Positions 27,164 through 48,859 are shown, counted from the first letter of the stretch. The stretch is 64,000 nucleotides of DNA from Candidatus Eiseniibacteriota bacterium (GCA_963823555.1 CAWGMA010000003.1:384001-448000), one strand, 5' to 3'. The notes: generated by a model not told the origin, from the sequence alone. Numbers and translations: made by a program.

Positions 27164-27182
27164 CGCCAATGGGCAGTTAAGC
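27164..27182 (+). other. candidate attI site
   Basis: CGCCAAT-GGGCA-GTTAAGC; the first cassette starts at G27176 with no attC in front, unlike its other four copies. Confidence 0.75.
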
Positions 27183-27515
27183 GCAGCTACGGGTCTTCGT
27201 TGAGCGCCGTGCCATTGGGGCTTGGGAGAGGTTCCGGGCGCAGCGACGGGAGCTTCGTTGTGGCAAGAGAAGGGTCCATGAGTCCCGTTGCGAGGCTTGA
27301 TCGGGAGCGCTGCGAACGATCGCTCGCCGTCTGAAGCTCGTGCCGCCCGGGCTTGAGGCACGCGTTTTGGGCGGAGAGTGCGCTGGTGTAGCCAGCTCCC
27401 GCCGCTCGTGCTTCGGCGAGGAAGAAGTGGGGAGAGGTGTAACGGTAGGGGCGGAGTTCAGGAGAGCCGAGATTTCTGGGAGTTGTCGGGAGAGGGCGTC
27501 GTCGCTGCGCCTAAC
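27176..27515 (+). repeat. gene-less cassette copy 1
   Basis: 340 bp unit, near-identical to 28994, 29487 and 31841. Confidence 0.9.
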
Positions 27516-27666
27516 GCGCGGCTAGGCGGCTCCGCTCGCTGCGCTCGCTTCGCGCAACCCGGCGCTTTCCGTCACGGCGCTTGCCGTGACGGGCGCGCTG
27601 GAGTCGACCTTGCTGCGGCAAGCGCCGCGCCGGGCGCCGGGTTCGCCAGCCGCGGTATCGTTAAGC
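27509..27666 (+). repeat. attC-like site 1
   Basis: GCCTAAC...GGTATC-GTTAAGC, imperfect palindrome. Confidence 0.85.
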
Positions 27667-27912
27667 GCAGCTACGGGAGTCCCGTTGCGAGGCTTGATCG
27701 GGAGCGCTGCGAACGACCGCTCGCCGTCTGAAGCTCGTGCCGCCCGGGCTTGAGGCACGCGTTTTGGGCGGAGAGTGCGCTGGTGTAGCCAGCTCCCGCC
27801 GCTCGTGCTTCGGCGAGGAAGAAGTGGGGAGAGGTGTAACGGTAGGGGCGGAGTTCAGGAGAGCCGAGATTTCTGGGAGTTGTCGGGAGAGGGCGTCGTC
27901 GCTGCGCCTAAC
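27660..27912 (+). repeat. gene-less cassette copy 2 (87 bp internal deletion)
   Basis: 253 bp; CTACGG joined directly to GAGTCCCG. Confidence 0.88.
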
Positions 27913-28070
27913 GCGCGGCTAGGCGGCTCCGCTCACTCGCTGCGCTCGCATCGCTTCGCCCAACCCGGTCGTCCGTCACGGCGCTTGCGGCCGGGGCGGG
28001 GTTGAGGTTCACCTTGCTGCGGCAAGCGCCGCGCCGGGCGCCGGGTTCGCCAGCCGCGGTATCGTTTTGC
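27906..28070 (+). repeat. attC-like site 2
   Basis: GCCTAAC...GTTTTGC. Confidence 0.85.
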
Positions 28071-28154
28071 GGCAAGCGAGAGCAGACCATTCGCGAACAC
28101 TAAGAAGCACTACCAGCCAGCAGCGCAGCCTGCTGGGACCAGGGAGCACAGTCT

Positions 28155-28819
28155 GTGAGTAACTTGCCCGCACGTCGCGTGGCATCCTTGCCAGCCGCGA
28201 TCCTGCTCGTTGCGGTTGCCGGCTCTGCCCCAGCGCAGGACATTGTCATTGAGGCCGAGTTCTACCCGACCTGGGCCTGCTTCCCGACCAATGGCGCAGA
28301 GTCTCACCGTCCGATTCTCTGGCATCCTCGCTTACATCCACCGACCCCTTGCCGAAGTGCTCGCAGCATTCCCTGATGAGTGGGAGCGGGAAACCACGCA
28401 TCCGTGTTGGTCTGGATGTTCGACCGCCCGGTTTGCGGCTTCGCTTCGCCAACAGCACCTCCATATATCCCCCTTACATTCCAGGATACGTCGAGCGTCT
28501 GACGTTCGAGCCGCAACCTCCGGTCACAGTCGATTCCGTTCATGTGAATTGGTACCCCTTGCCAGGACAGGAGTCCCCTCCTTTCACGTTCTTTCCACCT
28601 TCATGCATGTTCGTCCTCGACGCTGATTCACAAGTCCTAGTCAATGCCGACGCCGTCATCAACTTGGTCGGAGTATACGCCTCTCTTGGCGGATACCATT
28701 GCTGTTTGGGGCTCGGAGGTGGGAATCTCCTGACGTTGCTCTCCATGACGAAGGCGTCACCATGCCTAATCGCAGTCGAGGAAGCCACGTGGGGGGCAAT
28801 CAAGGCCACATGGAAATGA
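28155..28819 (+). pseudogene. secreted protein with TWGxIK tail, frameshifted (cassette 3)
   Basis: Signal peptide in ORF 28155-28376; tail VEEATWGAIKATWK in overlapping ORF ending 28819. Confidence 0.6.
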
Positions 28820-28840
28820 TGATGTTGCCATTCGCTTGCC

Positions 28841-29000
28841 GCATAACACGCGGCCTGGCGGCTCCGCTCGCTGCGCTCGCTCCGCTGCAACCCGGCGCCT
28901 TCCGTCACGGCGCTTGCCGTGACGGGCAGCGCTGGAGGTTCCTCTTGCTGCGGCAAGCGCCGTGCCGGCGCCGGGTTCGCCAGCCGCGGTATCGTTAAGC
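28841..29000 (+). repeat. attC-like site 3
   Basis: GCATAAC...GTTAAGC. Confidence 0.85.
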
Positions 29001-29333
29001 GCAGCTACGGGTCTTCGTTGAGCGCCGTGCCATTGGGGCTTGGGAGAGGTTCCGGGCGCAGCGACGGGAGCTTCGTTGTGGCAAGAGAAGGGTCCATGAG
29101 TCCCGTTGCGAGGCTTGATCGGGAGCGCTGCGAACGATCGCTCGCCGTCTGAAGCTCGTGCCGCCCGGGCTTGAGGCACGCGTTTTGGGCGGAGAGTGCG
29201 CTGGTGTAGCCAGCTCCCGCCGCTCGTGCTTCGGCGAGGAAGAAGTGGGGAGAGGTGTAACGGTAGGGGCGGAGTACAGGAGAGCCGAGATTTCTGGGAG
29301 TTGTCGGGAGAGGGCGTCGTCGCTGCGCCTAAC
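28994..29333 (+). repeat. gene-less cassette copy 3
   Basis: 340 bp repeat unit. Confidence 0.9.
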
Positions 29334-29493
29334 GCGCGGCTAGGCGGCTCCGCTCACTCGCTGCGCTCGCATCGCTTCGCCCAACCCGGTCGTCCGTCAC
29401 GGCGCTTGCGGCCGGAGGCGGGGTTGAGGTTCGACCTTTCTGCGGCAAGCGCCGCGCCGGGCGCCGGGTTCGCCAGCCGCGGTATCGTTAAGC
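29327..29493 (+). repeat. attC-like site 4
   Basis: GCCTAAC...GTTAAGC. Confidence 0.85.
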
Positions 29494-29826
29494 GCAGCTA
29501 CGGGTCTTCGTTGAGCGCCGTGCCATTGGGGCTTGGGAGAGGTTCCGGGCGCAGCGACGGGAGCTTCGTTGTGGCAAGAGAAGGGTCCATGAGTCCCGTT
29601 GCGAGGCTTGATCGGGAGCGCTGCGAACGACCGCTCGCCGTCTGAAGCTCGTGCCGCCCGGGCTTGAGGCACGCGTTTTGGGCGGAGAGTGCGCTGGTGT
29701 AGCCAGCTCCCGCCGCTCGTGCTTCGGCGAGGAAGAAGTGGGGAGAGGTGTAACGGTAGGGGCGGAGTTCAGGAGAGCCGAGATTTCTGGGAGTTGTCGG
29801 GAGAGGGCGTCGTCGCTGCGCCTAAC
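29487..29826 (+). repeat. gene-less cassette copy 4
   Basis: 340 bp repeat unit. Confidence 0.9.
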
Positions 29827-29986
29827 GCGCGGCTAGGCGGCTCCGCTCACTCGCTGCGCTCGCATCGCTTCGCCCAACCCGGTCGTCCGTCACGGCGCTT
29901 GCGGCCGGAGGCGGGGTTGAGGTTCGACCTTTCTGCGGCAAGCGCCGCGCCGGGCGCCGGGTTCGCCAGCCGCGGTATCGTTATGT
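29820..29986 (+). repeat. attC-like site 5
   Basis: GCCTAAC...GTTATGT. Confidence 0.85.
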
Positions 29987-30024
29987 GCCCTGCACACCTG
30001 ACCATTGGGAGAAAGGGACTCGAC

Positions 30025-30732
30025 ATGAGGCCTCGCGCTAGCGCGCTCATCATCTCTATTCCTCTGCTTGTCTCGTTGGCGCTCTTCGTTCCCTCCTGCG
30101 GGGACGATGATGGCCCCGCGGCTCCCGATCTCGCCAGCGCTTACCTCATTCAAGCAACCCTCGTGCTCAGCACGGAAACTGCCACCGTCGCCGTCTCCCG
30201 CCTCGATGCCAGCGACCCTTCGGCTGCCACTGCTGTAGTCCTGCTCGATGGTCACGGCATGCAGCACTCGGCAAACAACACACCAGACCAGGCAACCTTC
30301 CTGTCGCAGGTTCCCACGAATCCCGGCCACGCCTACGCCTTTTCCGTCACCGTCGACGGCGTCAGCGCCTCAGGCACCCTCGCTACTCCTGATCAGCCAT
30401 GCACGGTTGCCATCACGCAACCGCCGCCTGGGAATCTGACGTTCTCGTCGGGCACCGATCTCGCTCTTCAATGGGAATACGTCGGCTCCGAACCAGGGGA
30501 GTTTGGCGTCTTTGGATCGAGTGTCGCCTTTCCCCCTCGCGTCTTCTCAGATACTCTACAGGCGAGTGCACGGTCGGCCGTTGTCGAGACATCGCAGTGG
30601 TCGCTCGCATCCCAGGTGTTCCTGCGAGTCACGGCCCGGACACGAGCGGAGATCTCCGGAGACCTTGCTGCCCCAACAAGCTCATCATTTGTTGACTTCG
30701 CTACATCGGAGGTCATTCTCACCCGTAGGTAG
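30025..30732 (+). CDS. putative lipoprotein (cassette 6)
   Basis: Hydrophobic leader ending VPSC-GDDD; fills the cassette. Confidence 0.75.
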   Translation: MRPRASALIISIPLLVSLALFVPSCGDDDGPAAPDLASAYLIQATLVLSTETATVAVSRLDASDPSAATAVVLLDGHGMQHSANNTPDQATFLSQVPTNPGHAYAFSVTVDGVSASGTLATPDQPCTVAITQPPPGNLTFSSGTDLALQWEYVGSEPGEFGVFGSSVAFPPRVFSDTLQASARSAVVETSQWSLASQVFLRVTARTRAEISGDLAAPTSSSFVDFATSEVILTRR

Positions 30733-30754
30733 CAGGTCCCCGCGAGTGCAGGGC

Positions 30755-30915
30755 ACATAACACGCGGCCTGGCGGCTCCGCTCGCTGCGCTCGCGTCGCC
30801 CAACCCGGCGCTTTCCGTCACGGCGCTTGCCGTGACGGGGCCGCGCTGGAGGTCCACTTTGCTGCGGCAAGCGCCGTGCCGGGCGCCGGGTTCGCCAGCC
30901 GCGGTATCGTTTTGC
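30755..30915 (+). repeat. attC-like site 6
   Basis: ACATAAC...GTTTTGC. Confidence 0.85.
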
Positions 30916-30984
30916 GACGGGCGCGTACGGACCTCCATCTTAGCGCATGCGGCTAACACTCCTGTCGCAAGGAGGTGAGATACC

Positions 30985-31659
30985 TTGATCTTTGGCAGTA
31001 ATCTTGGTCTTGCCGGCGTGGCGTTGCTGGCGCTTAGCCTCACCATGCGAGTTGCCGAGGCAGTTGACAACGAGCCACCCACCTGCGATCACGGCGGACC
31101 CTACGAGTGCATTCCCCAGCACGCTGTGGAGTTTGATGGCCGTGGATCCTACGACCCCGACGGTGTCATCGTGAGCTACGTCTGGTCGTTTGGTGATGGG
31201 CACACCGCCACCGGCGCGCTGGTCACGCACAGATACGAGGTCGTCGGCTCCTTCACCGTCGCGCTTCTCGTCACGGATAATGATGACAACTTCAGCGTCT
31301 GCGAGACCATTGCCCGCATCGTCGAACCGTGCCCTGGCAATTGCCCCCCGATCTGCGACGCTGGTGGCCCTTACCACGGCATAGCTGGTGTCCCGATTCA
31401 ATTCGATGGGTCGGGCTCGCTCCCCGTCATCGCTTGCATCCCGCTGGTCCAATTCGCATGGACATTTGGAGACGGGGCGACCGCCGTCGGCCCGCAACCG
31501 CTGCGCACTTACACGACGCCCGGCGACTTCAATATCACGCTCACGATCGTGGACTCTGACGGAGCCACCTCATCCTGTTCCTCCGTCGCAGTGGTTGCGG
31601 AACCCTCTGGAGTCGACCCCACCACATGGGGACGCATCAAGAACACAGTCCTGGAATGA
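30985..31659 (+). CDS. secreted tandem PKD domain protein with TWGxIK tail (cassette 7)
   Basis: FDGRGSYDPDG, WSFGDG and WTFGDG motifs; AAGGAGG RBS; VDPTTWGRIK. Confidence 0.85.
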   Translation: MIFGSNLGLAGVALLALSLTMRVAEAVDNEPPTCDHGGPYECIPQHAVEFDGRGSYDPDGVIVSYVWSFGDGHTATGALVTHRYEVVGSFTVALLVTDNDDNFSVCETIARIVEPCPGNCPPICDAGGPYHGIAGVPIQFDGSGSLPVIACIPLVQFAWTFGDGATAVGPQPLRTYTTPGDFNITLTIVDSDGATSSCSSVAVVAEPSGVDPTTWGRIKNTVLE

Positions 31660-31689
31660 CCTTCACGGCAGGACTCTCCCGTGTCCGTC

Positions 31690-31847
31690 GCAAAACACGC
31701 GGCCGGCGGCTCCGCTCGCTGCGCTCGCTTCGCCTAACCCGGCGCTTTCCGTCACGGCGCTTGCAGTGACGGGCCGCGCTGGAGTCCATCTTGCTGCGGC
31801 AAGCGCCGTGCCCGGCGCCGGGTTCGCCAGCCGCGGTATCGTTAAGC
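31690..31847 (+). repeat. attC-like site 7
   Basis: GCAAAAC...GTTAAGC. Confidence 0.85.
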
Positions 31848-32180
31848 GCAGCTACGGGTCTTCGTTGAGCGCCGTGCCATTGGGGCTTGGGAGAGGTTCC
31901 GGGCGCAGCGACGGGAGCTTCGTTGTGGCAAGAGAAGGGTCCATGAGTCCCGTTGCGAGGCTTGATCGGGAGCGCTGCGAACGACCGCTCGCCGTCTGAA
32001 GCTCGTGCCGCCCGGGCTTGAGGCACGCGTTTTGGGCGGAGAGTGCGCTGGTGTAGCCAGCTCCCGCCGCTCGTGCTTCGGCGAGGAAGAAGTGGGGAGA
32101 GGTGTAACGGTAGGGGCGGAGTTCAGGAGAGCCGAGATTTCTGGGAGTTGTCGGGAGAGGGCGTCGTCGCTGCGCCTAAC
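31841..32180 (+). repeat. gene-less cassette copy 5
   Basis: 340 bp repeat unit. Confidence 0.9.
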
Positions 32181-32341
32181 GCGCGGCTAGGCGGCTCCGC
32201 TCACTCGCTGCGCTCGCATCGCTTCGCCCAACCCGGCGCTTCCGTCACGGCGCTTGCGGCCGGGGGCGATGTTGAGGTTCGACCTTTCTGCGGCAAGCGC
32301 CGCGCCGGGCGCCGGGTTCGCCAGCCGCGGTATCGTTTGGC
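32174..32341 (+). repeat. attC-like site 8
   Basis: GCCTAAC...GTTTGGC. Confidence 0.85.
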
Positions 32342-32362
32342 GCCACGCTACATCTAGCTCAT

Positions 32363-33001
32363 ATGAGAGACTTCATGCAGCATCTTTGGATGTCCATGTG
32401 GGTCGCATGCTACCTTGCATGCGTCGTTGGCTGCCATCGGGACGATCACGAAGTGTCCGCCATCTCGTTGAGAATCGAGCGCCGCCTCGGACTCAAGTTG
32501 CCCTGCGAAATCCATAGCGCCCAAGAGTACGATGATGGGGGGTCAATTGGCGGGACAATCCTGGACGCTACCGGGCAACAACTCCAGTTCTGGTGGGATG
32601 GCGGCATGCGCCTTCGTCCTGAGGATGTTAGCCACTTAGGCGATCGATTCGGTACTACAGATCCCGTAACCTCAGGTCCACGTTTGGTGTACTTGGGCGC
32701 CCATCATCGAGAAGACCGCCAGGCGCGCGCACTTCTAGTTGGCAGCGCGGAGGAAAGTGCCTTCGTTGATGTGCTGCGTCTGGCTGTGTCGAAACACTTC
32801 CCATTAGCCACTCAGGACAGCATTGCGGCCATCTGGATGGACCACCGCCCACTTTCCGGCAGAACCGCTTTGGCAGATCATCTTTCCCGTTCAGAGACTC
32901 ATGAACTCGAAGCCATTCGCCTTGCGGTCCTTCTGAGAATGCAGCGTTCGGGCACCACAATCGATCCAATGTCGTGCCCGTCGGCGACGGTTCCCCAATG
33001 A
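32363..33001 (+). CDS. hypothetical protein, possible lipoprotein (cassette 9)
   Basis: ORF fills the cassette; VVGC lipobox-like motif. Confidence 0.65.
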   Translation: MRDFMQHLWMSMWVACYLACVVGCHRDDHEVSAISLRIERRLGLKLPCEIHSAQEYDDGGSIGGTILDATGQQLQFWWDGGMRLRPEDVSHLGDRFGTTDPVTSGPRLVYLGAHHREDRQARALLVGSAEESAFVDVLRLAVSKHFPLATQDSIAAIWMDHRPLSGRTALADHLSRSETHELEAIRLAVLLRMQRSGTTIDPMSCPSATVPQ

Positions 33002-33021
33002 TAGAACAAGTTACGCGTGGC

Positions 33022-33180
33022 GCCAAACACGCGGCCTGGCGGCTCCGCTCGCTACGCTCGCTTCGCCTAACCCGGCGCTTTCCGTCACGGCGCTTGCAGT
33101 GACGGGCCGCGCTGGAGTCCATCTTGCTGCGGCAAGCGCCGTGCCGGGCGCCGGGTTCGCCAGCCGCGGTATCGTTAGCC
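33022..33180 (+). repeat. attC-like site 9
   Basis: GCCAAAC...GTTAGCC. Confidence 0.85.
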
Positions 33181-33202
33181 GCCCGCCCGGGGAAGCACCT
33201 TG

Positions 33203-33756
33203 ATGAAGTTCGGCTTGGCCTCGTCGCCCTCATTCGCCGCACTGCACCTGGTGTTGACCATTGCGCATCGGGCCCAGCGGTTGGCTACAGCCAGGAGCCA
33301 GGCGACGCAACCTACGTATTCGTTGCGCGCGCCAGCGGTTGCTATCGTCTCGAAGTGCTCGGCCGTTCAAGAGTCCTCCCCCGCGGGGCGCCGCCGGGGT
33401 TCCCCCAGGCGTCACTTCCTCGGGTGTTTCGCTTGCTCCCACAGCGAGATCAGCGTCGCATCGTTGACTTCGAGGGCATCGGCTCGCGATCATCGACCCG
33501 CTCTGACGCACTCGGAGCATGGCAAGTAGCGCCTCTACCATTCCCGCCCAATTCATCATCGTGGAGCCATTCTGGTTGGGAACCCTTCGCTGAGGGCGAC
33601 AGCATCAAGGTCACATGGGTGTGGGGCTACGAAGCCAGCGTGCTCCTCCTCGGTGTAGCTCCGGATACTCTCCACGGCGTGCTAGAACGGCGCGCCGACA
33701 TTGGTGGACCACAGAGCATCGAAAGAGTCATCGCCATTCGCATGAAATGCCAGTGA
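33203..33756 (+). pseudogene. hypothetical exported protein, probably frameshifted (cassette 10)
   Basis: Leader MKFGLASS..LHLVLTI in one frame, body CASGPA..IRMKCQ in another ending just before the attC. Confidence 0.45.
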
Positions 33757-33772
33757 TGGTGTTCCACAGGGC

Positions 33773-33937
33773 GGCTAACGCGCGGCTAGGCGGCTCCGCT
33801 CGCTCGCTCCGCTCGCATCGCTACGCCCAACCCGCCGTCCGTCACGGCGCTTGCGATCGGAGACGGGTTGAGGTTCGCTCTTGCTGCGGCAAGCGCCGCG
33901 CCGGCCGCCGGGTTCGCCAGGCCGCGAAACGTTATAC
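33773..33937 (+). repeat. attC-like site 10
   Basis: GGCTAAC...GAAAC-GTTATAC. Confidence 0.85.
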
Positions 33938-33966
33938 GCCCGCACGCTAACCACCGGGAGGTGGTG

Positions 33967-34862
33967 ATGATCAGACATCTCTCCTTGTTGGGATGCATCC
34001 TGCTCTCGGTCCTTCCAGTGGCAGCGGCTGTAGTGCCGACCAATGCCTTCGCAGACGGCACCTGGCAATTCCTAAGTTCGTTTCTCTGTAATGCCGACGA
34101 CATCGCAATTGACTCGCAACACAACGTCTACGTCCTAGACATGGGCGAGTACCCTACGATAAAGGTCTTCAATTTCCAGGGCGACCTCTTGCGTGAAGAA
34201 TGGGGCTTCGCCTATGCAAGGGCCATCGCTATCGATGACGATGACTTTCTCTATGTCTTGAACTACCTTCACGAGGGCTACTCCCGGCGAGGTTGGGTTG
34301 AAACGGTACGACCTGAACTTCCAACCGCATGGAGGCTGGGACTATGCCAGTAGCGATCTCGAGATGGGCACAGCAATCGACGTACACGGTGGGATTGCCT
34401 ATATAGCCACGGTGCAATAGTCTACTCAAGTTTTCGACCAGCGGGGTACTGCTCGATACCTTCGCCTGGGGCTGGTGGCGGGTCGCGGTCGCAATCGACG
34501 GAAGCGTATGGGTCGCGCAGTACTACGGAGGCTTGGTGCGACACTACTCCGCCGACGGCGACATCCTCCACGAGTGGCGCACGATTCTTCCAGGGGAGCA
34601 ATACAGTGCCCCGAACGACATCGCAGTCGACTCGCGGCAGCGCGTCATCGTTGCAGATTTGGAGGCAATGCTGGTGAAGGTCTTTCGCGCGGATGGCATT
34701 CTCGATAGCACGATTGAGCTCTGGCCCTTTTCTATCGCTCTGGATGGCGACAACATCCTCCATGTCGGTGCGTCGGAGCCAATGTACCTTATGAAGTTTG
34801 TATACGTCCCAGTTTCGGTGGATCAGTCATCGTGGGGCAGGATCAAGGCCGCATTCAAGTAG
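33967..34862 (+). pseudogene. NHL-repeat beta-propeller secreted protein with SWGRIK tail, frameshifted (cassette 11)
   Basis: DIAIDSQHNVYVLD and PNDIAVDSRQRVIVAD repeats split over ORFs ending 34353 and 34862. Confidence 0.7.
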
Positions 34863-34912
34863 ATGACAACGCGAGCGAAAGAACAGCCCGATTCTGGTCC
34901 CTTCGTGCGGGC

Positions 34913-35077
34913 GCATAACGCGCGGCTGGGCGGCTCCGCTCGCTCGCTGCGCTCGCATCGCTTCGCCCAACCCGCCGTCCGTCACGGCGCTTGCCGTGAC
35001 GGGCCGCGCTGGAGGTCACCTTGCTCCGGCAAGCGCCGTGCCGTCCGCCGGGTTCGCCAGCCACGGTATCGTTATGC
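34913..35077 (+). repeat. attC-like site 11
   Basis: GCATAAC...GTTATGC. Confidence 0.85.
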
Positions 35078-35159
35078 GTCCGGCACCTCCGCCGACAGGG
35101 GTCTTTGAACTACCGGCTTTGTCGAGTACTCTCTTCGCCCGGAGGCCAGCCAGGAATCC

Positions 35160-35504
35160 ATGCCACCCATCGCCAACGCGGACCGGGCCGTCATCGAGCC
35201 GCAAAAGCTCAGGGGCTATCTCCTCTCCCGAACTCACGCCGTCGGGCGCTTCAAAGCCATCTTCTTTCGGTCGCTCGGCTATTCCGCCTCTCGCTGGCAA
35301 CGTCTCGAGGCCGACCTCCGGGCTCACCTCTTGGCCAATGACCCCGCCTTCGAGGAGGAGTCTCCCTACGGCCGCAAGTACCTCATTCGTGGTACCCTTC
35401 GTGGACCCAATGGCCGCCAGGCGGAGGTCGTCGCCATCTGGATCCTCCTCGCCGGGGACACCATCCCTCGCTTCGTAACCGCCTATCCGGGGGAACGGAA
35501 ATGA
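35160..35504 (+). CDS. DUF6883-like putative toxin
   Basis: KLRGYLLSRTHAVGRFKA, YGRKY, PRFVTAYP; ATGA overlap with partner gene. Confidence 0.7.
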   Translation: MPPIANADRAVIEPQKLRGYLLSRTHAVGRFKAIFFRSLGYSASRWQRLEADLRAHLLANDPAFEEESPYGRKYLIRGTLRGPNGRQAEVVAIWILLAGDTIPRFVTAYPGERK

Positions 35505-35734
35505 GCTTTCACACCCTCGATACCGTCGTCCTCAACAAGGACCTGCCCGAGCACAGCCTGAGGGCTGGCGATCTCGGTGCCGTTGTCCAGGTCTACGAAC
35601 CTGACGGCCTCGAGGTCGAATTCGTCACCGCCTCTGGGAAGACCGAAGCCGTGGTCACACTTCATGCCTCCGATGTCCGCCACGTCGAGGACAGCGACAT
35701 CATCGCCGTTCGACGCCTTAAGCGCTCTGCATAG
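35501..35734 (+). CDS. DUF4926 domain protein (putative antitoxin)
   Basis: LDTVVL..DLPE..GDLGAVV..EVEF. Confidence 0.8.
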   Translation: MSFHTLDTVVLNKDLPEHSLRAGDLGAVVQVYEPDGLEVEFVTASGKTEAVVTLHASDVRHVEDSDIIAVRRLKRSA

Positions 35735-35808
35735 CGTCAAGCTCCCCGCGAGCCGCGCTCTCCGCTTCTCAACAGAGATCATCGGGCGACATTGAAGGGG
35801 TGCCGGAC

Positions 35809-35968
35809 GCATAACACGCGGCCTGGCGGCTCCGCTCGCTGCGCTTGCTCCGCCCAACCCGGCGCTTTCCGTCACGGCGCTTGCCGTCAGGGGCTGGGTT
35901 GGGATTCAGTCTTTCTGCGGCAAGCGCCGCGCCGGCCACCGGGTTCGCCAGCCGCGGTATCGTTTTGC
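35809..35968 (+). repeat. attC-like site 12
   Basis: GCATAAC...GTTTTGC. Confidence 0.85.
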
Positions 35969-39403: not shown

Positions 39404-39410
39404 CGGTGGC

Positions 39411-40063: not shown

Positions 40064-40099
40064 GAACCCCACGGGTCCCGAGCACATGAGGCTACGTCC

Positions 40100-40723
40100 A
40101 TGCTGTGTAGATGCCCTCTTCCGCACTTGCTCGTGGTCGCCATCGCTATTGGCTTCACCGCGGCCATGGACGCCGAGGCAGTGCCGACGATCGTGATGGA
40201 CGTGCAGGGTGAACTCGTCTTCTGCCCTGCAGTAGACCCCTGTGTCGCACCGAATCAGCCGCGGGTGAATATCCCGGCGATTGAGCAGTGGTTCTATGCC
40301 TACGTCTTCGCGCGCAACTACGACGATGTCGCCGCGATCCAGTGGGCCTTTGACTGGCCTCCGACCTTGGTCGTCGGCGGTGGCTTCTGGCTGTGCCCTC
40401 CCGGCTCCATCGGGATTCCCGAGCAGCCACCGTATGGTCCCGGCCCGATCGCCGGCAGCTGCGGTGCCATCTTCAATTGCGTCTCCGGCGGGGCTTCGAT
40501 GTTGATCGGGTGGGTTGGCGTGCGCCCCGGAACTGGATGCCTCGAGATCATTGAATCCGGGTTTCCAAATGGCACGCATATTGTCACATGCTCCGGGGCG
40601 ATCGTACCCGTCCCACCTGCCAACCGAGGCAAGATCTGCGTCGGTGAGGGCGGCATTGACGCCTGCAAGTCTCTGGTTCCTGTCACGCCAGCAACCTGGG
40701 GTGCAATCAAGAACACCTATTGA
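40100..40723 (+). CDS. secreted Cys-rich protein with TWGxIK tail (cassette 17)
   Basis: Signal peptide, ARNYDDVAAIQWAFDW, VTPATWGAIKNTY. Confidence 0.8.
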   Translation: MLCRCPLPHLLVVAIAIGFTAAMDAEAVPTIVMDVQGELVFCPAVDPCVAPNQPRVNIPAIEQWFYAYVFARNYDDVAAIQWAFDWPPTLVVGGGFWLCPPGSIGIPEQPPYGPGPIAGSCGAIFNCVSGGASMLIGWVGVRPGTGCLEIIESGFPNGTHIVTCSGAIVPVPPANRGKICVGEGGIDACKSLVPVTPATWGAIKNTY

Positions 40724-40759
40724 TCTGTCGTGAGAGCGCACTATGGTGGGGTGGGGTTC

Positions 40760-40917
40760 GGCTAACGCGTGGCCGGCGGCTCCGCTTGCTGCGCTCGCTA
40801 CGCCCAACCCGGCGCTTTCCGTCACGGCGCTTGCAGTGACGGGCCGCGCTGGAGGCTCCCTTGCTGCGGCAAGCGCCGCGCCGGGCGCCGGGTTCGCCAG
40901 CCGCGGTATCGTTAAGC
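40760..40917 (+). repeat. attC-like site 17
   Basis: GGCTAAC...GTTAAGC. Confidence 0.85.
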
Positions 40918-40958
40918 GCCCTACGCCATTGGTCTTAAGAAGAACCGGCCTGGAGTCC

Positions 40959-41441
40959 ATGAAGCCCCTTTGCCTTACGTTAGCCTTCGCACTCTGCCTC
41001 TGCACATTCCCAACCGCAGTCCCGGGGCAGATTCTCTCTGGCTTTCCCCTGCATGCGATTCAGCTCGGCGCGGGCGAGTGCGACATCACTGACCCCTGCG
41101 CCTTTGGCATCAGCACAACGGTTCTTCCTGGATTCCTCACGGTCATCTACATCTGGACTCGCAACACCGGTCCGATCGCTGGAATCCAAACCGCTTTCGA
41201 TTGGGACCCCGGCACCTGGACCCTCGCCTACAGCGAGTGGGACTGCCAGCAAGGCCAACTCACAACGCATGTTCCTTCGGGACCGGGGCCCGTTGATGGC
41301 ACCATCTCGACCGTGTTCGACTGCGCGACCTACGGTGCTAGCTCGTGGATCATCGGAAAGCTCTACATGATCCCCTCATCTGGCTGCTTGCGACAGGTTC
41401 AATCCGCCCTGGCCTTCGGGACCTGTGTTTGCTTGTCCTGA
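40959..41441 (+). CDS. secreted Cys-rich protein, same family as 40100; C-terminus probably frameshifted (cassette 18)
   Basis: AGIQTAFDW motif; homologous GTICV segment continues in another frame after ~41425. Confidence 0.65.
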   Translation: MKPLCLTLAFALCLCTFPTAVPGQILSGFPLHAIQLGAGECDITDPCAFGISTTVLPGFLTVIYIWTRNTGPIAGIQTAFDWDPGTWTLAYSEWDCQQGQLTTHVPSGPGPVDGTISTVFDCATYGASSWIIGKLYMIPSSGCLRQVQSALAFGTCVCLS

Positions 41442-41585
41442 GGGTGCATGGCCGATCTACCCAGAGGCCTGCGGTACCATTTGCGTCAACGAGCCTGGCA
41501 TGATCGCCTGCTGGCCTGGACGAGGAACCGGCGAGCGTGAGGGCCACGAGGCGCAGTACTGCCAGTGGTTTGCGTGCGTAGGGCG

Positions 41586-41745
41586 TCATAACACGCGGCC
41601 TGGCGGCTCCGCTCGCTGCGCTCGCTCCGCTGCAACCCGGCGCTTTCCGTCACGGCGCTTGCCGTGACGGGCTGCGCTGGAGTACCCCTTGCTGCGGCAA
41701 GCGCCGCGCCGGGCGCCGGGTTCGCCAGCCGCGGAGACGTCATAC
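41586..41745 (+). repeat. attC-like site 18
   Basis: TCATAAC...GGAGAC-GTCATAC (GTC core). Confidence 0.8.
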
Positions 41746-41773
41746 GCCCTTGGCCGTGGGTCGTAGGAGAAAG

Positions 41774-42190
41774 TCACGCTGGGCGATCACCGAGGTACTT
41801 GTCCGCAAACTCCCTCGGGCGCTGGACGCTTATCCCTCGATATCCGCTGACCTTTAAGAGATGCCTGTCGCCACTGATAACGCGCCTCGCTCGGCCGGCC
41901 ACGGCGCAGGCCAGAAACTTGTCGTCGGCCCTGTCTTCGCACACAGGCAGCGGGAGAGCTGGGGCGACAACGATCGTGGCCTTTGAGATGAGCAGGACCA
42001 GTATTGGCGTGACATCAACTCCAGGGAAACGCTGGGCAATCCTCTGCGCCGTGCCCCAGTACTCATCGACAATCTCTGGCGACACAACCACATCCAGCTC
42101 ATCGTCTCTCCACGCCAAGACGATCCGGTACGGTGCGCCACCGAAGAAGATCCCCGAAATCAGCACGTTGGTGTCGACCACGATCCTCAC
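41774..42190 (-). CDS. PIN domain toxin
   Basis: VVDTNVLISG, DDKFLACA, ISGDRHLL. Confidence 0.9.
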   Translation of the reverse strand: MRIVVDTNVLISGIFFGGAPYRIVLAWRDDELDVVVSPEIVDEYWGTAQRIAQRFPGVDVTPILVLLISKATIVVAPALPLPVCEDRADDKFLACAVAGRARRVISGDRHLLKVSGYRGISVQRPREFADKYLGDRPA

Positions 42191-42450
42191 TGCCGGCCTC
42201 GGGTCGCGGCTACCGCTCGCGTGATGTCCGAGCGCTTCACCTTTGCGCGGCGCGCGGCCTTGCGCGTCTCGGCCACCAAGTCATCAAACTCAGCGACCGA
42301 GGGCGGAGCGATGACCTTGAGGATTACGACATCCCCATTGCCGATCACGACGAACTGGGCGCCGGGCTGCAACCCGAGTCGTTTGCGGATATTCTCGGGA
42401 ATGACGACCTGTCCCTTGGCAGACATTTTGGTTGTAGCGAGCGTAGGCAT
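42187..42450 (-). CDS. AbrB/MazE family antitoxin
   Basis: KGQVVIPENIRKRLGL. Confidence 0.9.
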   Translation of the reverse strand: MPTLATTKMSAKGQVVIPENIRKRLGLQPGAQFVVIGNGDVVILKVIAPPSVAEFDDLVAETRKAARRAKVKRSDITRAVAATRGRQ

Positions 42451-42464
42451 CTGGTTCCTCCCCT

Positions 42465-42488
42465 GGTAGTCTTACCAGTAAGACTACC
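42465..42488. promoter_or_regulatory. operator of the AbrB/PIN operon
   Basis: perfect inverted repeat GGTAGTCTTAC-CA-GTAAGACTACC just upstream of the antitoxin. Confidence 0.65.
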
Positions 42489-42712
42489 CCAAGCACCGAG
42501 GCCCCGCAAGGGGCGGTTTTCTGTGACCGGAGTGCGGGTGCCCGTGAGCAAAGGAACCCGATGTGCTACGGGTTGGCCAAGGGCGCATAACGCGCGGCTG
42601 TCAACGAACATTGAAAACTGGTCCAAGGTGAACGGCGAAAAGTGGACCACCCCTGCTGAGGATCCGGGCTGATCACGGTAAGTTCTGACCTCCTTTCTGG
42701 TTCCGAGTCTGC

Positions 42713-43168
42713 TCAGGCCGGGGCGAGAGCAGGGGCCTGGGTCGTGGCCAGGGTGCGTTCCCGCAGCCGGTAGCTGTGTCCCTTGATCGATAACACATGG
42801 CTGTGATGGAGTCGCCGATCGAGGATGGCGGTGGCGATGGCGTGATCGCCGAAGACCTCTGGCCACTCGGTCACGGACTTGTTCGAGGTGAGGATCACAC
42901 TCGAGCGTTCGTAGCGGTAGGCGACGACCTGGAAGAGGTAGTTGGCTTCGGCACGCGAGAGCGGTAGGTACCCGACCTCATCGAGCACCTTGATCCGCCG
43001 CTCCTCCCGCGCCGCGATCTCTTCTTCGAGCAGCTGGTCGAGGAAAGCCGCATACCCGAGCTCGCTGTCTTCAGCACTCTTGAGCGCCTCAGGCAGGGTG
43101 TCCTTGACGCGCCACAGCCCGAGTCGATCGAGTTGCGTGACCAGGCGATCGTAGGTGGGCTGGCTCAT
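42713..43168 (-). pseudogene. istB: IstB helper ATPase with internal in-frame deletion
   Basis: ERRIK joined directly to VLDEVGYL (Walker A missing); ILTSN, AILDR motifs. Confidence 0.85.
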
Positions 43169-44277
43169 CGCACACCTCCGAGGACGGAGACATACTCCGC
43201 GATCGGGCGCTGCTCGACCTCGGCCGCGGCCCAGGGCACCACCGAGAGCAGGTGGACGCGACGGGTGACCGGTCGGCGTTTCGCTGCCCGTTCCTGCAGC
43301 CGTTCGAACCGGGGGCGTCGCAGGGCAGCCACATGCTCCTCGATGATCGAGCGCTCACCCTTGGCCACCTGGCGGTGTTCGGCTACACGCTCGGCTTGCG
43401 AGAAGATCTCGATCGCATCGCCCAGCGGATCGATCTTGACGACCACGCGAGAGCCGACTAGATGATGCGGAACCGAGTAACGTCCGGCATGGAAGCTCAC
43501 GGTGCAATCGCTCAGCACCCGTCGGGTCTCCGGCAACCGTGGATCAAAGCTGATCTCCGGCAGCGCCAGAAGTTCCGGTCGCTCCCGTTCCAGACGCGCC
43601 CAGGGCACTTCGCCCGTGGTGCCGTGAACGCGTCCGTTGCGGGCCCGATCGAGCGCGGTCACGGCATCTTGCAGTGCGTACAGGCCCGGGTACTGCTCTT
43701 CGAGCAGGCCGGCATCCTCGATATCCCGGTAGCTCCGTTCGGTCTTCCCCTTCCGTTCGGGGTGATACGGCCAGGCCGGGTCCGGCTCGCAGCCATAGTG
43801 TCGACAGACGTCCAGGAAGAAGGGCTGGAGCTCGAGCTGCGGGCGCGGCCGCAAGACCGCCGCCTTCGTGTTGTCGAACAACACTCGCGCCGGCACACCC
43901 CCGGCTGCGATGAACGCCCAGCGCAACGCCGCCAGGAGGGCGGGCAGATTGATGCTGCGCACGACGAGTGTCCACTGTGCCCGCGACCACCCGAGCAGAA
44001 AGCGGAAGAAGTGCACGCTGGTCTCGGGCTCGGCGCGGAGCAGACCACGTGCCGGTCCTTTCCAGTCGAACTGGCCTTCGAGTCCGGGCGCGGTCTCGAA
44101 CCGCACGCAGGCGCGCCGACGAGCGCGCTCCAGGCGCCGCCGCTCGCGCACCCAACACTTCACCCGTTCGTAATGCCCCTGGTAGCCCTCGCGCACAATC
44201 AGCGCATGGAGCACCGTCGCCGGTGCCGCCGGCCGTGCCGCCAGCAACTCTTCGAGACGACCTACGAACGGTTCGAG
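43165..44277 (-). pseudogene. istA: IstA transposase, 5'-truncated
   Basis: RFETAPG..QFDW, FDNTK, KGKTER, VHGTTGE, YSVP; N-terminal HTH absent. Confidence 0.88.
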
Positions 44278-44467
44278 CGCCGGCCGCCGGGTTCGCCAGC
44301 CGCGGTATCGTTATGTGCACGGCCTCGGATCGCCTTGGTCTAGCTCTCAGCGTCGCCATGGAGCACCCTCGATGGCGATCTCGCGACGCCCCTTGTCCGG
44401 GCCATCGTGGCCGTCGAACGCACGTCCCCGGCTGGCATGATCGTGGCTGCGGTGCTACTCTCGTCCC

Positions 44468-44737
44468 ATGCCCGAACTGTCGCGGTTCTTTGGGATCATC
44501 GTCCGAATGTTCGCTGAGGCTGGAGAACCACATCACGCGGCTCATTTCCATGCCTACTACCAGGACCATATCGGCGTCTTCGGCATTGACCCCGTCGAGT
44601 TGCTCGCTGGCTCTTTCCCTCGCCGCCAGCAGCGGCTGGTTGAGGCATGGGCGGAGCTCCATCAGCAGGAGCTTCTTCAGGACTGGGAGCGCCTGCAGGC
44701 AGGCCAGCGGCCTTTGCCCATCGATCCACTTCGCTAA
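44468..44737 (+). CDS. DUF4160 domain protein (putative toxin)
   Basis: MPELSRFFGI, HFHAYY, WAELHQQEL; TG-n-TACTCT just upstream. Confidence 0.85.
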   Translation: MPELSRFFGIIVRMFAEAGEPHHAAHFHAYYQDHIGVFGIDPVELLAGSFPRRQQRLVEAWAELHQQELLQDWERLQAGQRPLPIDPLR

Positions 44738-44746
44738 CGAGGCCAT

Positions 44747-45043
44747 ATGAAGCACCCAATCGTCCGCGTCGAGTCCTTCGAGATCGTTGGGCCTTATACC
44801 CTGCGTGTCGCCTTCGACGATGGTTCTGCACAGGTCATTGATTTCCGCCCGGTCCTCTTCGGCGAGCTATTTGGACCGCTTCAGGACCTCACGCTGTTCA
44901 ATCGTGTTGGCATCGACCCCGAGGTTAGAACCCTCGTTTGGCCCAACGGCGCCGACTTCGACCCTGCTACACTTCACGGATGGCCGCAGCACGCTCGCGC
45001 CATGGAGCAACTGGCTCGTCGCTGGGAGCGCGGCGCTGCTTGA
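44747..45043 (+). CDS. DUF2442 domain protein (putative antitoxin)
   Basis: LRVAFDDG, WPNGADFDPATL. Confidence 0.85.
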   Translation: MKHPIVRVESFEIVGPYTLRVAFDDGSAQVIDFRPVLFGELFGPLQDLTLFNRVGIDPEVRTLVWPNGADFDPATLHGWPQHARAMEQLARRWERGAA

Positions 45044-46059
<1,016 letters not shown>

Positions 46060-46117
46060 CCATCGCAGGCTGAGGCCTTCTCGTCCTGGGCTTCATCGCA
46101 GTTTCCCTTCGCTCCTC

Positions 46118-46277
46118 GCATAACACGCGGCCTGGCGGCTCCGCTCGCTGCGCTCGCTTCGCTGCAACCCGGCGCTCTCCGTCACGGCGCTTGCCGTGAC
46201 GGGCCGCGCTGGAGGCCCCCTTGCTGCGGCAAGCGCCGCGCCGGCCGCTGGGTTCTCCAGCCGCGGAAACGTTATGC
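46118..46277 (+). repeat. attC-like site 21
   Basis: GCATAAC...GGAAAC-GTTATGC. Confidence 0.85.
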
Positions 46278-46311
46278 GCGCAGCAAGGACGCAGTCCGGA
46301 GGTGCATCCCA

Positions 46312-47691
46312 ATGAAAGCAGCGATCCCCCTCGTGGCTCTTGCCCTGCTCGTGGGTGCCAACCCCCTGAGCGCGGCGACCCTCGTCGTCCCTGACCAGTA
46401 CGCATCGATCGGTGCCGCCATCCTCGCGGCCACCAATGGCGACACAGTCTTCGTCCGTGCTGGGACCTATGTCGAGAATCTGAACTTCATGGGCAAGGGC
46501 ATCTCCCTGGTCAGCGAGGACGGACCGGTGGCCACCATCATTGATGGATCGAACCCATCGCACCCCGACTCGGGGAGCGTGCTCTTCATTCCGCCCGCGC
46601 CGACGCCAATCCTCGTGAGAGGTTTCACCATCACTGGGGGCAGCGGAACGCTCGATCAGAACATGTTCTCCAGAAGAGCCGGTGGCATCTATCTCCTGAC
46701 GGCTGGGGCTATCAAGGACAGCTGGATCACCGAGAATCACGCCGCTAGCATCACTGGAGTTGCGGGCGGGATCGAAGTGGCCGCCCAAGGCGTGACACTC
46801 CAGGGGAACCGCATCTACTCGAACACCGCGGGCTTGTCGTCCAGCGGTTCACGAGGCGGCGGGATCCTCATCAACGGATCCGACACAATCATCGAAGACA
46901 ATGTGGTGTTTGCCAATCAGGCTCTGGGGGAGCCAGGCACGGGTGGTGGTTGCTACGCGGACGGTATCACCACATTCCTTCATAACGTCTTTGCGTGCAA
47001 CCGAGGGTCGAACCGCGGAACTGCCATCAACGGCGCGTATCTCATCGAGAACTGCACGATTGTCGGAAACAGCGGCCTCCATCCCGCTTTCGATTCGGCG
47101 CTCGGCCGAGTCCAGACGGTCCGTCGTTCGAGCATCACCAGCAACGTGGGCCCGGGGATCGATGCTTGCAACCATCTCACGACTCCCTGCAACAACTTCT
47201 TCGATAACATTGGCGACGATCCAGCCTGCTATGACGCTGGCAACGGGAACATATCGGTCGAGCCTCTCTATGAGGAAACCCAGTGCGGCAGCACGTTCTG
47301 CCTCTTGCCGGAGTCACCTCTCCTGCCTGAGAACTCGCCACCTGGGTGCGGGCTCATCGGGGCGAGCGAGCAGTGCGTGTCAACGGCAATCGACGCGCCG
47401 ACAAGTCCCGATTACGCCTCTGGGCCGCTGGTTGCGCGACCGAATCCGTTCAACCCCGCGACTACCATTGCGTTCGTGCTCCCGGGTCGGCGCAGCCTCA
47501 CACTCGCCGTGTATGACACGTCCGGGCGTGCGGTGCGGATTCTCTTTGACGGTACCCTGCCGTCCGGGCCGCACGAGATCGTCTGGGACGGCCGTGACTC
47601 TCGCGGCACCTTGGTCGAGTCCGGGGCGTACATCGCAGTGCTGCAATCACCGGAGGCACGCTGGAGCCAGAAGCTGCTTCTCGTGAAATGA
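46312..47691 (+). CDS. secreted beta-helix protein with FlgD-Ig/T9SS-like C-terminal domain (cassette 22)
   Basis: VPDQYASIGAAI; PNPFNPATTI..YDTSGRAVR..WDGRD..SGAY..KLLLVK. Confidence 0.85.
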   Translation: MKAAIPLVALALLVGANPLSAATLVVPDQYASIGAAILAATNGDTVFVRAGTYVENLNFMGKGISLVSEDGPVATIIDGSNPSHPDSGSVLFIPPAPTPILVRGFTITGGSGTLDQNMFSRRAGGIYLLTAGAIKDSWITENHAASITGVAGGIEVAAQGVTLQGNRIYSNTAGLSSSGSRGGGILINGSDTIIEDNVVFANQALGEPGTGGGCYADGITTFLHNVFACNRGSNRGTAINGAYLIENCTIVGNSGLHPAFDSALGRVQTVRRSSITSNVGPGIDACNHLTTPCNNFFDNIGDDPACYDAGNGNISVEPLYEETQCGSTFCLLPESPLLPENSPPGCGLIGASEQCVSTAIDAPTSPDYASGPLVARPNPFNPATTIAFVLPGRRSLTLAVYDTSGRAVRILFDGTLPSGPHEIVWDGRDSRGTLVESGAYIAVLQSPEARWSQKLLLVK

Positions 47692-47725
47692 GGGCGAGTG
47701 TCCAGTAGCCTATCTATGGCGGCGC

Positions 47726-47884
47726 GCACAACCCGCGTCCTGGTGGCTCCGCTCGCTGCGCTCGCTGCGTCCAACCCGGCGCTCTCCGTCACGGCGCTTG
47801 CCGTGACGGGCCGCGCTGGAGTCCTCCTTGCTGCGGCAAGCGCCGCGCCGGGCGCCGGGTTCGCCAGCCGCGGTATCGTTAAGC
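47726..47884 (+). repeat. attC-like site 22
   Basis: GCACAAC...GTTAAGC. Confidence 0.8.
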
Positions 47885-48069
47885 GCACCTCGCTCCCGGG
47901 GTCACGCGTGCAGGAGGGGTCCGAGCCCCCTTTCACTGACAGCTTGGTGGAGGGGACCCGTTTGCGTACACTGGAGTCGGGCTCGGAGACGCCCGAGCCC
48001 CCTATGGCGGGCGAGCGGTTGGAACTGATGGCTGCCACTCCTGGCACCGGTGGGCCGCGGAGGTAGAAG

Positions 48070-48327
48070 CTGCGACGGCGAGAGTGGCCCCTCTGGTGTG
48101 CCTGGGAACTCGAACTGAGCCCGCACCTGGTCAAGCGCATGATTGATCGCCGGTTCTCCGAGATCGATCTCAGGACGATGCTTGAGCGCGCATCAGGCTA
48201 TGAGAGAGACGTGGTTGTCGGGCGGTGGGTCATCGAAACGCGGTTACGGAGACGGCGATGGCAAGTCATCGTCGAGCCTGATATTGCTACGGAGAGGCTC
48301 GTTGTCGTCACGGCCTATCCACTCTGA
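48070..48327 (+). CDS. DUF4258-like putative toxin
   Basis: LSPHLVKRMIDR, VVVTAYP; start is either CTG 48070 (GGAGG 6 nt upstream) or ATG 48139. Confidence 0.7.
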   Translation: MRRREWPLWCAWELELSPHLVKRMIDRRFSEIDLRTMLERASGYERDVVVGRWVIETRLRRRRWQVIVEPDIATERLVVVTAYPL

Positions 48328-48338
48328 GAAAGAGCGCA

Positions 48339-48608
48339 ATGCATGAGCCATACTTGGAAGTGACCTTTCGTCACGGTCGCCCGCTGGCGGCCTATCTGTA
48401 CCTGCCACGACGACCGGGGCAACGCAGCTTTCGAAGTCGACCTGTGGACCCCGGCATGGTTATCGACTTCAGCCGCGGTGGTCACCCCATCGGCATCGAG
48501 ATAACCGCACCAGATAGAGTCTCGCTTGCGGCAATCAACCGCGTCCTCCGTTCCCTTGGCTGCGCCCCCGTCAAGAAGGCCGATCTTGCGCCGCTGCGCG
48601 CTGCCTAG
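48339..48608 (+). CDS. DUF2283-like putative antitoxin
   Basis: AAYLYL, VIDF..GHPIGIEI. Confidence 0.75.
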   Translation: MHEPYLEVTFRHGRPLAAYLYLPRRPGQRSFRSRPVDPGMVIDFSRGGHPIGIEITAPDRVSLAAINRVLRSLGCAPVKKADLAPLRAA

Positions 48609-48692
48609 GCAGGTGTCACACCGAGTCCGGTCCGGCAAGCGAATACGACGACGGTGACAGCCAACCTCGAATATGGCCGCCATGCGAGGTGC

Positions 48693-48859
48693 GCTTAACG
48701 CGCGGCTAGGCGGCTCCGCTCGCTCGCTGCGCTCGCATCGCTTCGCCCAACCCGGTCGTCCGTCACGGCGCTTGCGGTCGGGGGCGGGGTTGAGGTTCGA
48801 TCTTGCTGCGGCAAGCGCCGTGCCGGGCGCCGGGTTCGCCAGCCGCGGTATCGTCATAC
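48693..48859 (+). repeat. attC-like site 23 (last)
   Basis: GCTTAAC...GGTATC-GTCATAC. Confidence 0.82.

Follow-up and report, generated by a model that had tools for sequence, protein, structure and literature searches.

We analysed a 64-kilobase (kb) stretch of a Candidatus Eiseniibacteriota genome (G000:C3:384001-448000, hereafter the window; the genome is labelled G000, and a second genome of the same genus, from a sister species, G001), which carries a gene cassette array beside an Xer-like tyrosine recombinase, and we focus on the short inverted repeats, or arms, that are private to each cassette. The array comprises 23 units on the plus strand (27176..48855), with attC repeats of 150-167 nucleotides (nt) between them. 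It starts at an attI-side junction, read from the sequence as ...AATGGGCA/GTTAAGC (27160..27178, plus strand), where the first cassette begins; the start of the cassette family found at 27176 is conserved. The attC repeats are GC-rich, start with AAC(A/G)CG(C/T)GGC, end with GCCGCGGTATCGTT and are mutually about 90-95% alike. Under constrained folding with AAC paired to GTT, they reached -41 to -55 kcal/mol. As in integrons, the 23 cassettes end in an imperfect palindrome bounded by ...AAC and GTT.... The cassettes hold one or two small genes, which by Pfam include toxin-antitoxin-like pairs (HigB/HTH, PIN/MazE, Fic/Doc, DUF4160/DUF2442, DUF5615 and DUF6883/DUF4926) and secreted proteins (PKD, beta-helix and a FlgD_ig tail). 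This attC type had 21 matches in the genome, all inside the array, and a whole-genome search found no second array of the same type elsewhere. Judged from its sequence, the layout is that of a sedentary chromosomal integron.

We set the cassette borders by hand at the edges of the conserved attC repeat, which are ...CGTT on the right and AAC(A/G)CG(C/T)GGC on the left. Within every attC there is also an inner hairpin of about 89 nt that likewise starts with AAC and ends with GTT (GCCCAAC...GTTCGCC, for example 30802-30892). This inner hairpin folds tighter per base than the entire attC, and the cassette borders sit at the outer AAC/GTT pair. On the window, an automatic attC caller picked the nested inner hairpin; borders in the window and in G001 were therefore placed by hand, and automatic calls served for control arrays only.

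The recombinase is encoded on the minus strand (open frame 25234-26850), with its catalytic core in the first 287 residues (25990..26850, minus strand; Pfam Phage_integrase and SAM_4). The first-pass annotation, a reading of the window made before this analysis, had proposed that a helix typical of integron integrases is missing from this protein, and two comparisons bear this out. The integron integrase model TIGR02249 scored 208.9 bits against a cut-off of 265, matching profile positions 1-174 and 216-314 and skipping 175-215. When aligned with IntI1, four further canonical IntIs and a second intI of the G000 genome, the window integrase and its G001 orthologue show a gap of about 30 amino acids at the place of the ALERKYPNA patch of the IntIs; the catalytic residues do align. 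The additional domain specific to IntI (the ALERKYPNA patch, or I2 helix) is thus absent. Escudero et al. 2016 describe this insertion as a domain specific to the single-strand pathway. Twelve IntIs formed a clade with 100/100 support in a tree of 32 rows, and the window integrase and two relatives fell outside it, on a long branch among Xer-like rows that had been chosen as best hits of the window integrase, with the root unknown.

The second intI lies at G000:C3:15024-15962 and is canonical (462.9 bits, 54% identical to IntI1, one in-frame TGA). In the 26 kb next to it we saw no repeat array, so it provides no control from within the genome.

In its divergently oriented integrase with an attI-side junction, its 23 mostly promoterless cassettes, its near-identical attCs and its wealth of toxin-antitoxin pairs and secreted proteins, the array resembles sedentary chromosomal integrons such as the Vibrio superintegrons. 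It differs from them in its integrase, which has no IntI-specific insertion, stays under the TIGR02249 cut-off, does not group with the IntI clade and has a DUF1802-like domain at its C-terminus. The attCs also differ, being 150-167 nt long with the inner AAC...GTT hairpin and a predicted spacer in the form of a one-sided 4-nt bulge.

To measure the arms, we compared the sequence beginning at the GTT of each cassette with the reverse complement of the stretch ending at the AAC of its own attC. A recognisable private arm was found in 22 of the 23 cassettes, with the cassette at 38450 as the sole true exception. Perfect runs of 13-17 base pairs (bp) occur in eight cassettes, and 17 cassettes have runs of 12-19 if one mismatch is tolerated. 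The first-pass annotation had listed start/end matches for 13 cassettes, and all were reproduced: 16/16 at 29980, 40057, 45294 and 47878; 17 at 35071; 15 at 44310; 14 at 32335; 13 at 36878; 15/16 at 28064, 33931 and 35962; 12 at 30909; and 11 at 33174.

We then considered pairing position by position among the 19 distinct cassettes. The pairing frequency was 0.74-0.95 at positions 9-16 and dropped to 0.26, the background level, at position 17, which indicates an element with a defined length of about 16 bp. Identity between non-own pairs at positions 9-16 was 0.25-0.58, in agreement with the earlier statement that the sequences differ between cassettes and the pairing is kept. Within the arm, positions 4-8 show partial conservation (GTT-W-D-V-Y-G), and the sequence of positions 9-16 is free. 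Over positions 8-16, own pairs averaged 7.7 matches of 9, compared with 3.65 for 509 non-own pairs. When the pairings were shuffled, as had been proposed with the first observation, own complementarity lay beyond all permutations: the own sum over positions 8-16 for the same 19 cassettes was 145, against a permuted mean of 77.7 (standard deviation 6.6, maximum 115), and 0 of 100,000 permutations reached 145. Within the 64-kb window, the reverse complement of each 16-nt start, allowing at most 2 mismatches, was found only at the end of its own cassette. Chance or common sequence as the source of the arms is ruled out by the permutations and the matrix of non-own pairs, both in the window and in G001. 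With these results, we conclude that the arms are 16 +/- 1 bp long and private to every cassette.

Pairing between the two ends of a cassette is itself known from integrons. Bouvier et al. 2009 (PMC2727003) state that most cassettes self-pair past the 7-nt R' and R'', to 9-11 consecutive nt, a figure cited there to Rowe-Magnus 2003 and Sundstrom 1991. Loot et al. 2017 (PMC5371416) note that the 4 variable bp of R' are free to differ from R'' when the site is in an array. The geometry in the window is the same as that of R''/R', with RYYYAAC on the left and GTTRRRY on the right of attC, the crossover in or next to GTT and the right side riding on the cassette 5' end. Likewise, the cassette start pairs with the left end of the attC of the same cassette and not with the upstream attC, over a length above the published range.

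As a control, we searched 401 genomes of the class of a gammaproteobacterial metagenome-assembled genome with an IntI model, which placed 157 above the cut-off. We took the DNA beside 20 IntIs on long contigs and scanned 19 regions together with one class 1 region; L180 (1.3 kb) was omitted. The control attCs were called by constrained folding and the RYYYAAC/GTTRRRY motif. This yielded 51 cassettes from 13 of the 20 regions, with perfect own-arm runs of 3-12 and none of 13 or more. In the validated subset of 27 cassettes from nine arrays, which have a core of at least 7 bp, the median run was 9, and pairing was 0.93 at position 8, 0.67 at position 9 and 0.33 at position 10, and stood at about 0.2 from position 13 onwards. 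For class 1 cassettes we took the best-matching AAC after the gene, a choice that favours long arms, and measured 8 for arr-3, 12 for aadB, 4-5 for aadA1 and 4 for dfrA14. The first-pass annotation had named a routine occurrence of the same extension in canonical arrays as a ground for refutation; canonical arrays do not routinely carry arms as long as those of the window.

Relative to canonical R''/R', the arms in the window are 16 +/- 1 bp long with perfect runs up to 17-18, pairing drops at position 17 rather than 10, and eight positions (9-16) are free in sequence. The earlier description of the arms as reaching far beyond the 7 bp core overlooked the pairing of 9-11 nt reported for ordinary cassettes in the cited passage of PMC2727003. 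Because that much own-cassette pairing is already published, the excess is about 5-7 bp and not 10. We conclude that the arms exceed those of ordinary integrons by about 5-7 bp, and that the underlying principle was already known. Set against the arrays next to canonical IntIs, they are longer by about 7 bp. What is known is own-cassette R''/R' pairing; what is new is the length, the sharp 16-bp limit and the accompanying recombinase. In the limited collection of literature searched, we found no description of arms of such length, nor of a cassette array that works with a recombinase devoid of the IntI domain.

We made the circle form of each cassette by joining its ends in silico and folded the bottom-strand attC. 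Averaged over 21 attCs, the circle form was more stable than the in-array form, with a mean difference in folding free energy of -7.8 kcal/mol. The median R stem was 15 bp in the circle and 9 bp in the array, and for 7 of the 21 in-array sites the minimum-energy fold had no R stem at all. The predicted circle hairpin has a 16-17-bp stem, then a one-sided 4-nt bulge next to AAC, then inner stems; further in, beyond the 4-nt bulge, the predicted folds also contain single bulged bases. The first pass had expected a circle stem about 10 bp longer than any junction between different cassettes. The circle stem is indeed predicted to be longer and more stable, and the word "any" does not hold, since three junctions equal the circle form (consecutive duplicated cassettes) and six others keep 11-14 bp, because of duplicated cassettes or the semi-conserved positions 4-8.

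We consider the most probable explanation, at roughly 70%, to be that the 16-base halves are the two sides of one R arm per attC, split by crossover in the invariant GTT, and that the rejoined arm would provide the excised circle with a full-length duplex binding site for an Xer-like integrase without the insertion. The function of the arm is something we infer from sequence. The private arm after an attC has its pairing partner at the far end of the cassette that follows, not in the left flank of that attC, which indicates that units moved as in integrons, by crossover in GTT or beside it. The right side of the outer arm would ride at the cassette 5' end and rejoin its partner only once the cassette has been excised as a circle. 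The single-stranded attC would then close by G plus a 15-bp arm outward of the cleavage point. One tyrosine recombinase monomer covers about the same duplex length (G + 15 bp), judging by Xer and Cre sites. As the sequence of the outer half is free, any recombinase contact there would be to the backbone, with the ability to pair being what is kept. Circles would then be better substrates than in-array sites with a mismatched outer arm, so that insertion at attI would be favoured and resident cassettes would stay quiet, which agrees with the bias toward integration suggested in the first-pass annotation. If the enzyme has no segment with which to read extrahelical bases, it would probably rely more heavily on the arm being a regular duplex. 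The first-pass annotation had also put forward compensation for the missing helix, and a scar of cassette creation, as possible meanings of the arms.

There is a partial parallel in the attP site of CTX phage, which XerCD recombines at dif: there, an Xer recombinase without the IntI insertion acts on a folded single-stranded DNA hairpin that mimics a duplex site with full arms. In that system the arm sequences are fixed and read by XerC and XerD, and there are no cassettes, whereas here the outer arm is free and cassette-specific.

The arms could also act before excision. One possibility, which we regard as unlikely, is that the locus represents a separate, undescribed class of gene capture, in which an Xer-like recombinase with a DUF1802-like tail, without the hairpin-reading segment, recognises a split, sequence-free 16-bp arm, and the arms let the single-stranded array refold so that every cassette is looped out as a fully paired site. 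We also asked how a single-stranded segment consisting of one attC, the following cassette and its own attC would fold. Own-arm pairing was present in 10 of 18 bottom-strand and 11 of 18 top-strand folds, with local R boxes absent. In three cases inspected, 30-83 pairs joined the neighbouring attCs in trans, contiguous with the arm, and the roughly 90-95% likeness of the attCs makes their halves interchangeable. These folds are what would be expected if the two ends of a cassette paired at a distance of about 1 kb, so that the cassette was looped out, and the facing attC halves paired to form a circle-like site for excision in a shifted register. We nevertheless judge this quite unlikely. The folds are equilibrium folds of an isolated segment, which ignore kinetics, single-stranded DNA-binding protein and the extent of single-stranded DNA, and the segment ends force some of the pairings. 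The structure was also absent from 7-8 of the 18 cassettes, namely all short copies without an open reading frame (ORF) and those at 38450, 40911 and 46271. No report of such a form for homogeneous arrays came up, and no search was aimed at it.

To determine whether the arms are a feature of relatives of the array, we turned to G001 and to metagenomes. The G001 integrase is 67% identical to that of the window and is located at a contig end, and an array of the same attC type lies on a different contig. Among its 26 measurable cassettes, the own sum was 171 against a permuted mean of 101.3 (standard deviation 6.9; 0 of 100,000 permutations), and pairing reached background by positions 16-17. 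A metagenome scan with the G000 and G001 integrases found four loci. L188 has four cassettes, each with an arm of 15/16, and L191 has one, with 16/16 and a perfect run of 18; L189 duplicates the first part of L188. The cassettes of L188 and L191 adjoin integrases that are about 60-69% identical. As the arms occur in G001, L188 and L191 too, the feature belongs to a lineage and not to a single assembly. Upstream of 51 Xer-like loci (of 80 returned), we found no AAC...GTT hairpin pairs with arms of at least 8, a result that does not show them to be absent.

G000 and G001 have cassettes in common, reshuffled between the two, which allows the arms to be compared with the bodies that they enclose. 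In five cassette pairs whose bodies are 96, 83, 73, 58 and 55% identical by global alignment, every arm keeps 14-16 of its 16 bases, and the similarity ends at the arm edge. Arms that are kept while bodies diverge argue against a decaying relic. These comparisons bear on the proposal that the joining of gene and attC at cassette birth leaves a 13-nt inverted duplication beside GTT/AAC, so that the arms are neutral relics with no role in recombination. A generative process of this kind could also give a fixed length and a cassette-specific sequence, and resident copies do carry one-sided mutations (30909 versus L191, 35962 versus G001, and G001 19875 versus 44310), as under weak selection in the array. 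We consider such an origin very unlikely, in view of the arms of 14-16/16 in pairs with bodies 55-73% identical, where the bases just outside are unrelated, and of canonical cassettes, which carry no such relic past about 9-12 bp. We know of no cassette-forming mechanism that predicts such an inverted duplication.

A role at the RNA level, in which the arms pair the 5' leader with the 3' trailer of cassette transcripts and affect mRNA stability or regulation without any part in DNA recombination, would fit the position of the arms, which avoid the reading frames and lie before the ribosome-binding region on one side and after the stop codon on the other, but is highly improbable, because the arms start exactly at, and continue from, the recombination core GTT/AAC, are also present on ORF-less cassettes and on the cassette at 41739, with genes on the other strand, and match no Rfam family (none reached gathering score across 26800-52000). 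In addition, integron cassettes without promoters would not have transcripts that begin at their borders.

Several points weigh against the reading of the arms as the halves of a split R arm. The public runs are contigs, which cannot show circles or excision. Excision has to begin from array sites whose arms are mismatched, a problem that canonical integrons share and that is larger here. Arm length and the absence of the insertion are correlated across no more than two groups. Shared sequence gives way to private sequence directly after CGTT, and the exact crossover base cannot be read, as ...CGTT is invariant. The canonical sample consists of genomes of one class and four class 1 cassettes. 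Furthermore, 24 of the 51 control cassettes have runs below 7, probably from missed sites; missed sites would depress the control figures, and the validated subset is thus the fairer comparison. Among the G000/G001 pairs, only 40-143 amino acids align in the two most diverged (55-58% body identity), at 50-59% identity. These two pairs may not be orthologues but different genes, in which case the same arms could reflect gene replacement within a cassette. Between clear orthologues, all 12 arm differences were one-sided and weakened pairing, with 0 compensatory changes, so that selection for pairing rests mainly on conservation.

One clean compensatory change was found, at position 10 of two related G001 cassettes (7363 versus 16096), where T-A stands against C-G. 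Among the arm mismatches in 40 distinct cassettes of the window, G001, L188 and L191, 13 were G.T on the bottom strand, 4 were G.T on the top strand and 23 were of other types, with A against G at position 6 recurring. The excess of G.T on the bottom strand is a weak hint of a possible strand bias.

Integron integrases are thought to need their extra domain for recombining folded single-stranded attC sites. The window carries a working-looking cassette array beside a recombinase without the IntI domain, and the 16-bp private arm is the most obvious difference in its sites. If the long arm replaces the missing domain, it would be a second route to the recognition of hairpin recombination sites, which would bear on the origin of integrons from Xer-like enzymes and would be useful for sequence-free recombination tools. 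For annotation, tools that demand the IntI domain would probably label such arrays as lacking an integrase.

The C-terminal domain fused to the integrase (25498..25935, minus strand) follows a Pro/Ala-rich linker, is about 146 amino acids long and is conserved, with 53-58% identity to the G001 orthologue and L188. It is DUF1802-like: PF08819 (DUF1802) matches all three members, with a best E of 6.8e-7, and the match to the window copy is weak (18.5 bits, below the cut-off of 25). An Atlas lead for the domain gave the same DUF1802-like identity (0.89). The predicted structural model was poor (pLDDT 58.8). In G000 and G001 the domain is an in-frame fusion. In L188 (6920-7522) and L189 (2988-3590) it lies in another frame and overlaps the end of the recombinase frame; a frameshift or an assembly error may account for this, or the domain may be a separate protein.

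The individual cassettes, all given on the plus strand, begin with a family of ORF-less units. Five copies of one such cassette of about 490 nt are present (27176, 27660, 28994, 29487 and 31841), the second about 80 nt shorter, and all have arms of 14/16. They are cassette 1 (27176..27660, arms 27176-27191 / 27500-27515), cassette 2, the shorter copy (27660..28064, arms 27660-27675 / 27897-27912), cassette 4 (28994..29487, end arm 29318-29333), cassette 5 (29487..29980, end arm 29811-29826) and cassette 8 (31841..32335, end arm 32165-32180). Between them lie cassette 3 (28064..28994, arms 28064-28079 / 28832-28847, 15/16), cassette 6 (29980..30909, arms 29980-29995 / 30746-30761, a perfect 16/16) and cassette 7 (30909..31841, end arm 31681-31696), which encodes a PKD-domain protein by Pfam and has a perfect run of 12 and 14/16 in total; its L191 relative has a perfect run of 18.

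Cassette 9 (32335..33174, end arm 33013-33028) has a perfect run of 14, and cassette 10 (33174..33931, end arm 33764-33779) one of 11, with 12/16. In cassette 11 (33931..35071, end arm 34904-34919, 15/16), the mismatch at position 6 is G.T on the bottom strand. Cassette 12 (35071..35962, end arm 35800-35815) carries a DUF6883/DUF4926 pair by Pfam and a perfect run of 17. The Fic/Doc pair is in cassette 13 (35962..36878, end arm 36701-36716, 15/16), whose G001 orthologue has a perfect run of 15, and a beta-helix secreted protein is in cassette 14 (36878..38450, end arm 38289-38304, perfect run 13, 15/16).

The exception, cassette 15 (38450..39304), matches its own end at 10/16, and its first 21 nt are those of cassette 16 (38450-38470 and 39304-39324). 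The partner of this shared start is found only at 40037, the end of cassette 16, so cassette 15 seems to carry the start of its neighbour. This suggests a crossover outside GTT or a slippage event. Cassette 16 itself (39304..40057, end arm 40037-40052, 14/16) carries a HigB/HigA-like pair, and its attC is cut to 10 nt (CATAAG GGCA GTT). At its border with cassette 17, 40037-40060, GGGCAGTT matches the attI-side junction at 27170-27178, and cassette 16 looks as if it ends in a piece of attI rather than in an attC. Cassettes of a delta-attI type are described in a 2026 paper (PMC12901181).

Cassette 17 (40057..40911, end arm 40751-40766, 16/16) has both arms identical in a G001 cassette with a 55% identical body. 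Cassette 18 (40911..41739, end arm 41577-41592) pairs with a 1-nt offset: it has 7/16 in register and a 10-nt match after the offset, and its predicted fold has 14 bp in the R stem. Cassette 19 (41739..44310, end arm 42576-42591, 14/16) carries a PIN/MazE-like pair on the minus strand. Inside its attC are IS21-like istA/istB remnants (~42601-44276, minus strand; Pfam IstB_IS21 and Mu-transpos_C_2), a 151-amino-acid istB fragment and a 360-amino-acid istA fragment that stand in place of the middle of the attC. The remaining units are cassette 20 (44310..45294, end arm 45124-45139), with DUF4160/DUF2442 and a perfect run of 15; cassette 21 (45294..46271, end arm 46109-46124, 16/16), with a DUF5615 pair; cassette 22 (46271..47878, end arm 47717-47732, 13/16), which encodes a beta-helix protein with a FlgD_ig tail; and cassette 23 (47878..48853, end arm 48684-48699, 16/16).

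We also considered the arms as terminal inverted repeats of transposons or miniature inverted-repeat transposable elements, and rejected this, as the arms differ among cassettes and abut a common attC, and no flanking duplication was seen.

Among public runs, the 23 listed were all contigs, the best with 0.31 of the words, and the contigs were short and broke at attCs. A few of them have other neighbours at cassette borders; examples are the loose ends at 29986, 32344 and 33020, as well as the X5 joint 41691>29440. These alternative joints are of low depth and within repeats, and we did not count them as evidence.

The attCs at 41739 and 48853 end in GTC and not GTT. No more attC of the same type occurs beyond 48853, and the next 3 kb encodes relatives (43-63% at the amino acid level) of G001 cassette proteins, so that the array may continue there as fixed genes without sites. 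Short ORF-less cassettes are found in G001 as well, which has families of its own with a common GGCCTCGTCTC following the arm. Finally, four cassette proteins share a C-terminal motif, (T/S)WG(R/A)IK followed by 3-5 residues before the stop (28785-28819, 31621-31659, 34828-34862 and 40693-40723), which may be a sorting signal.

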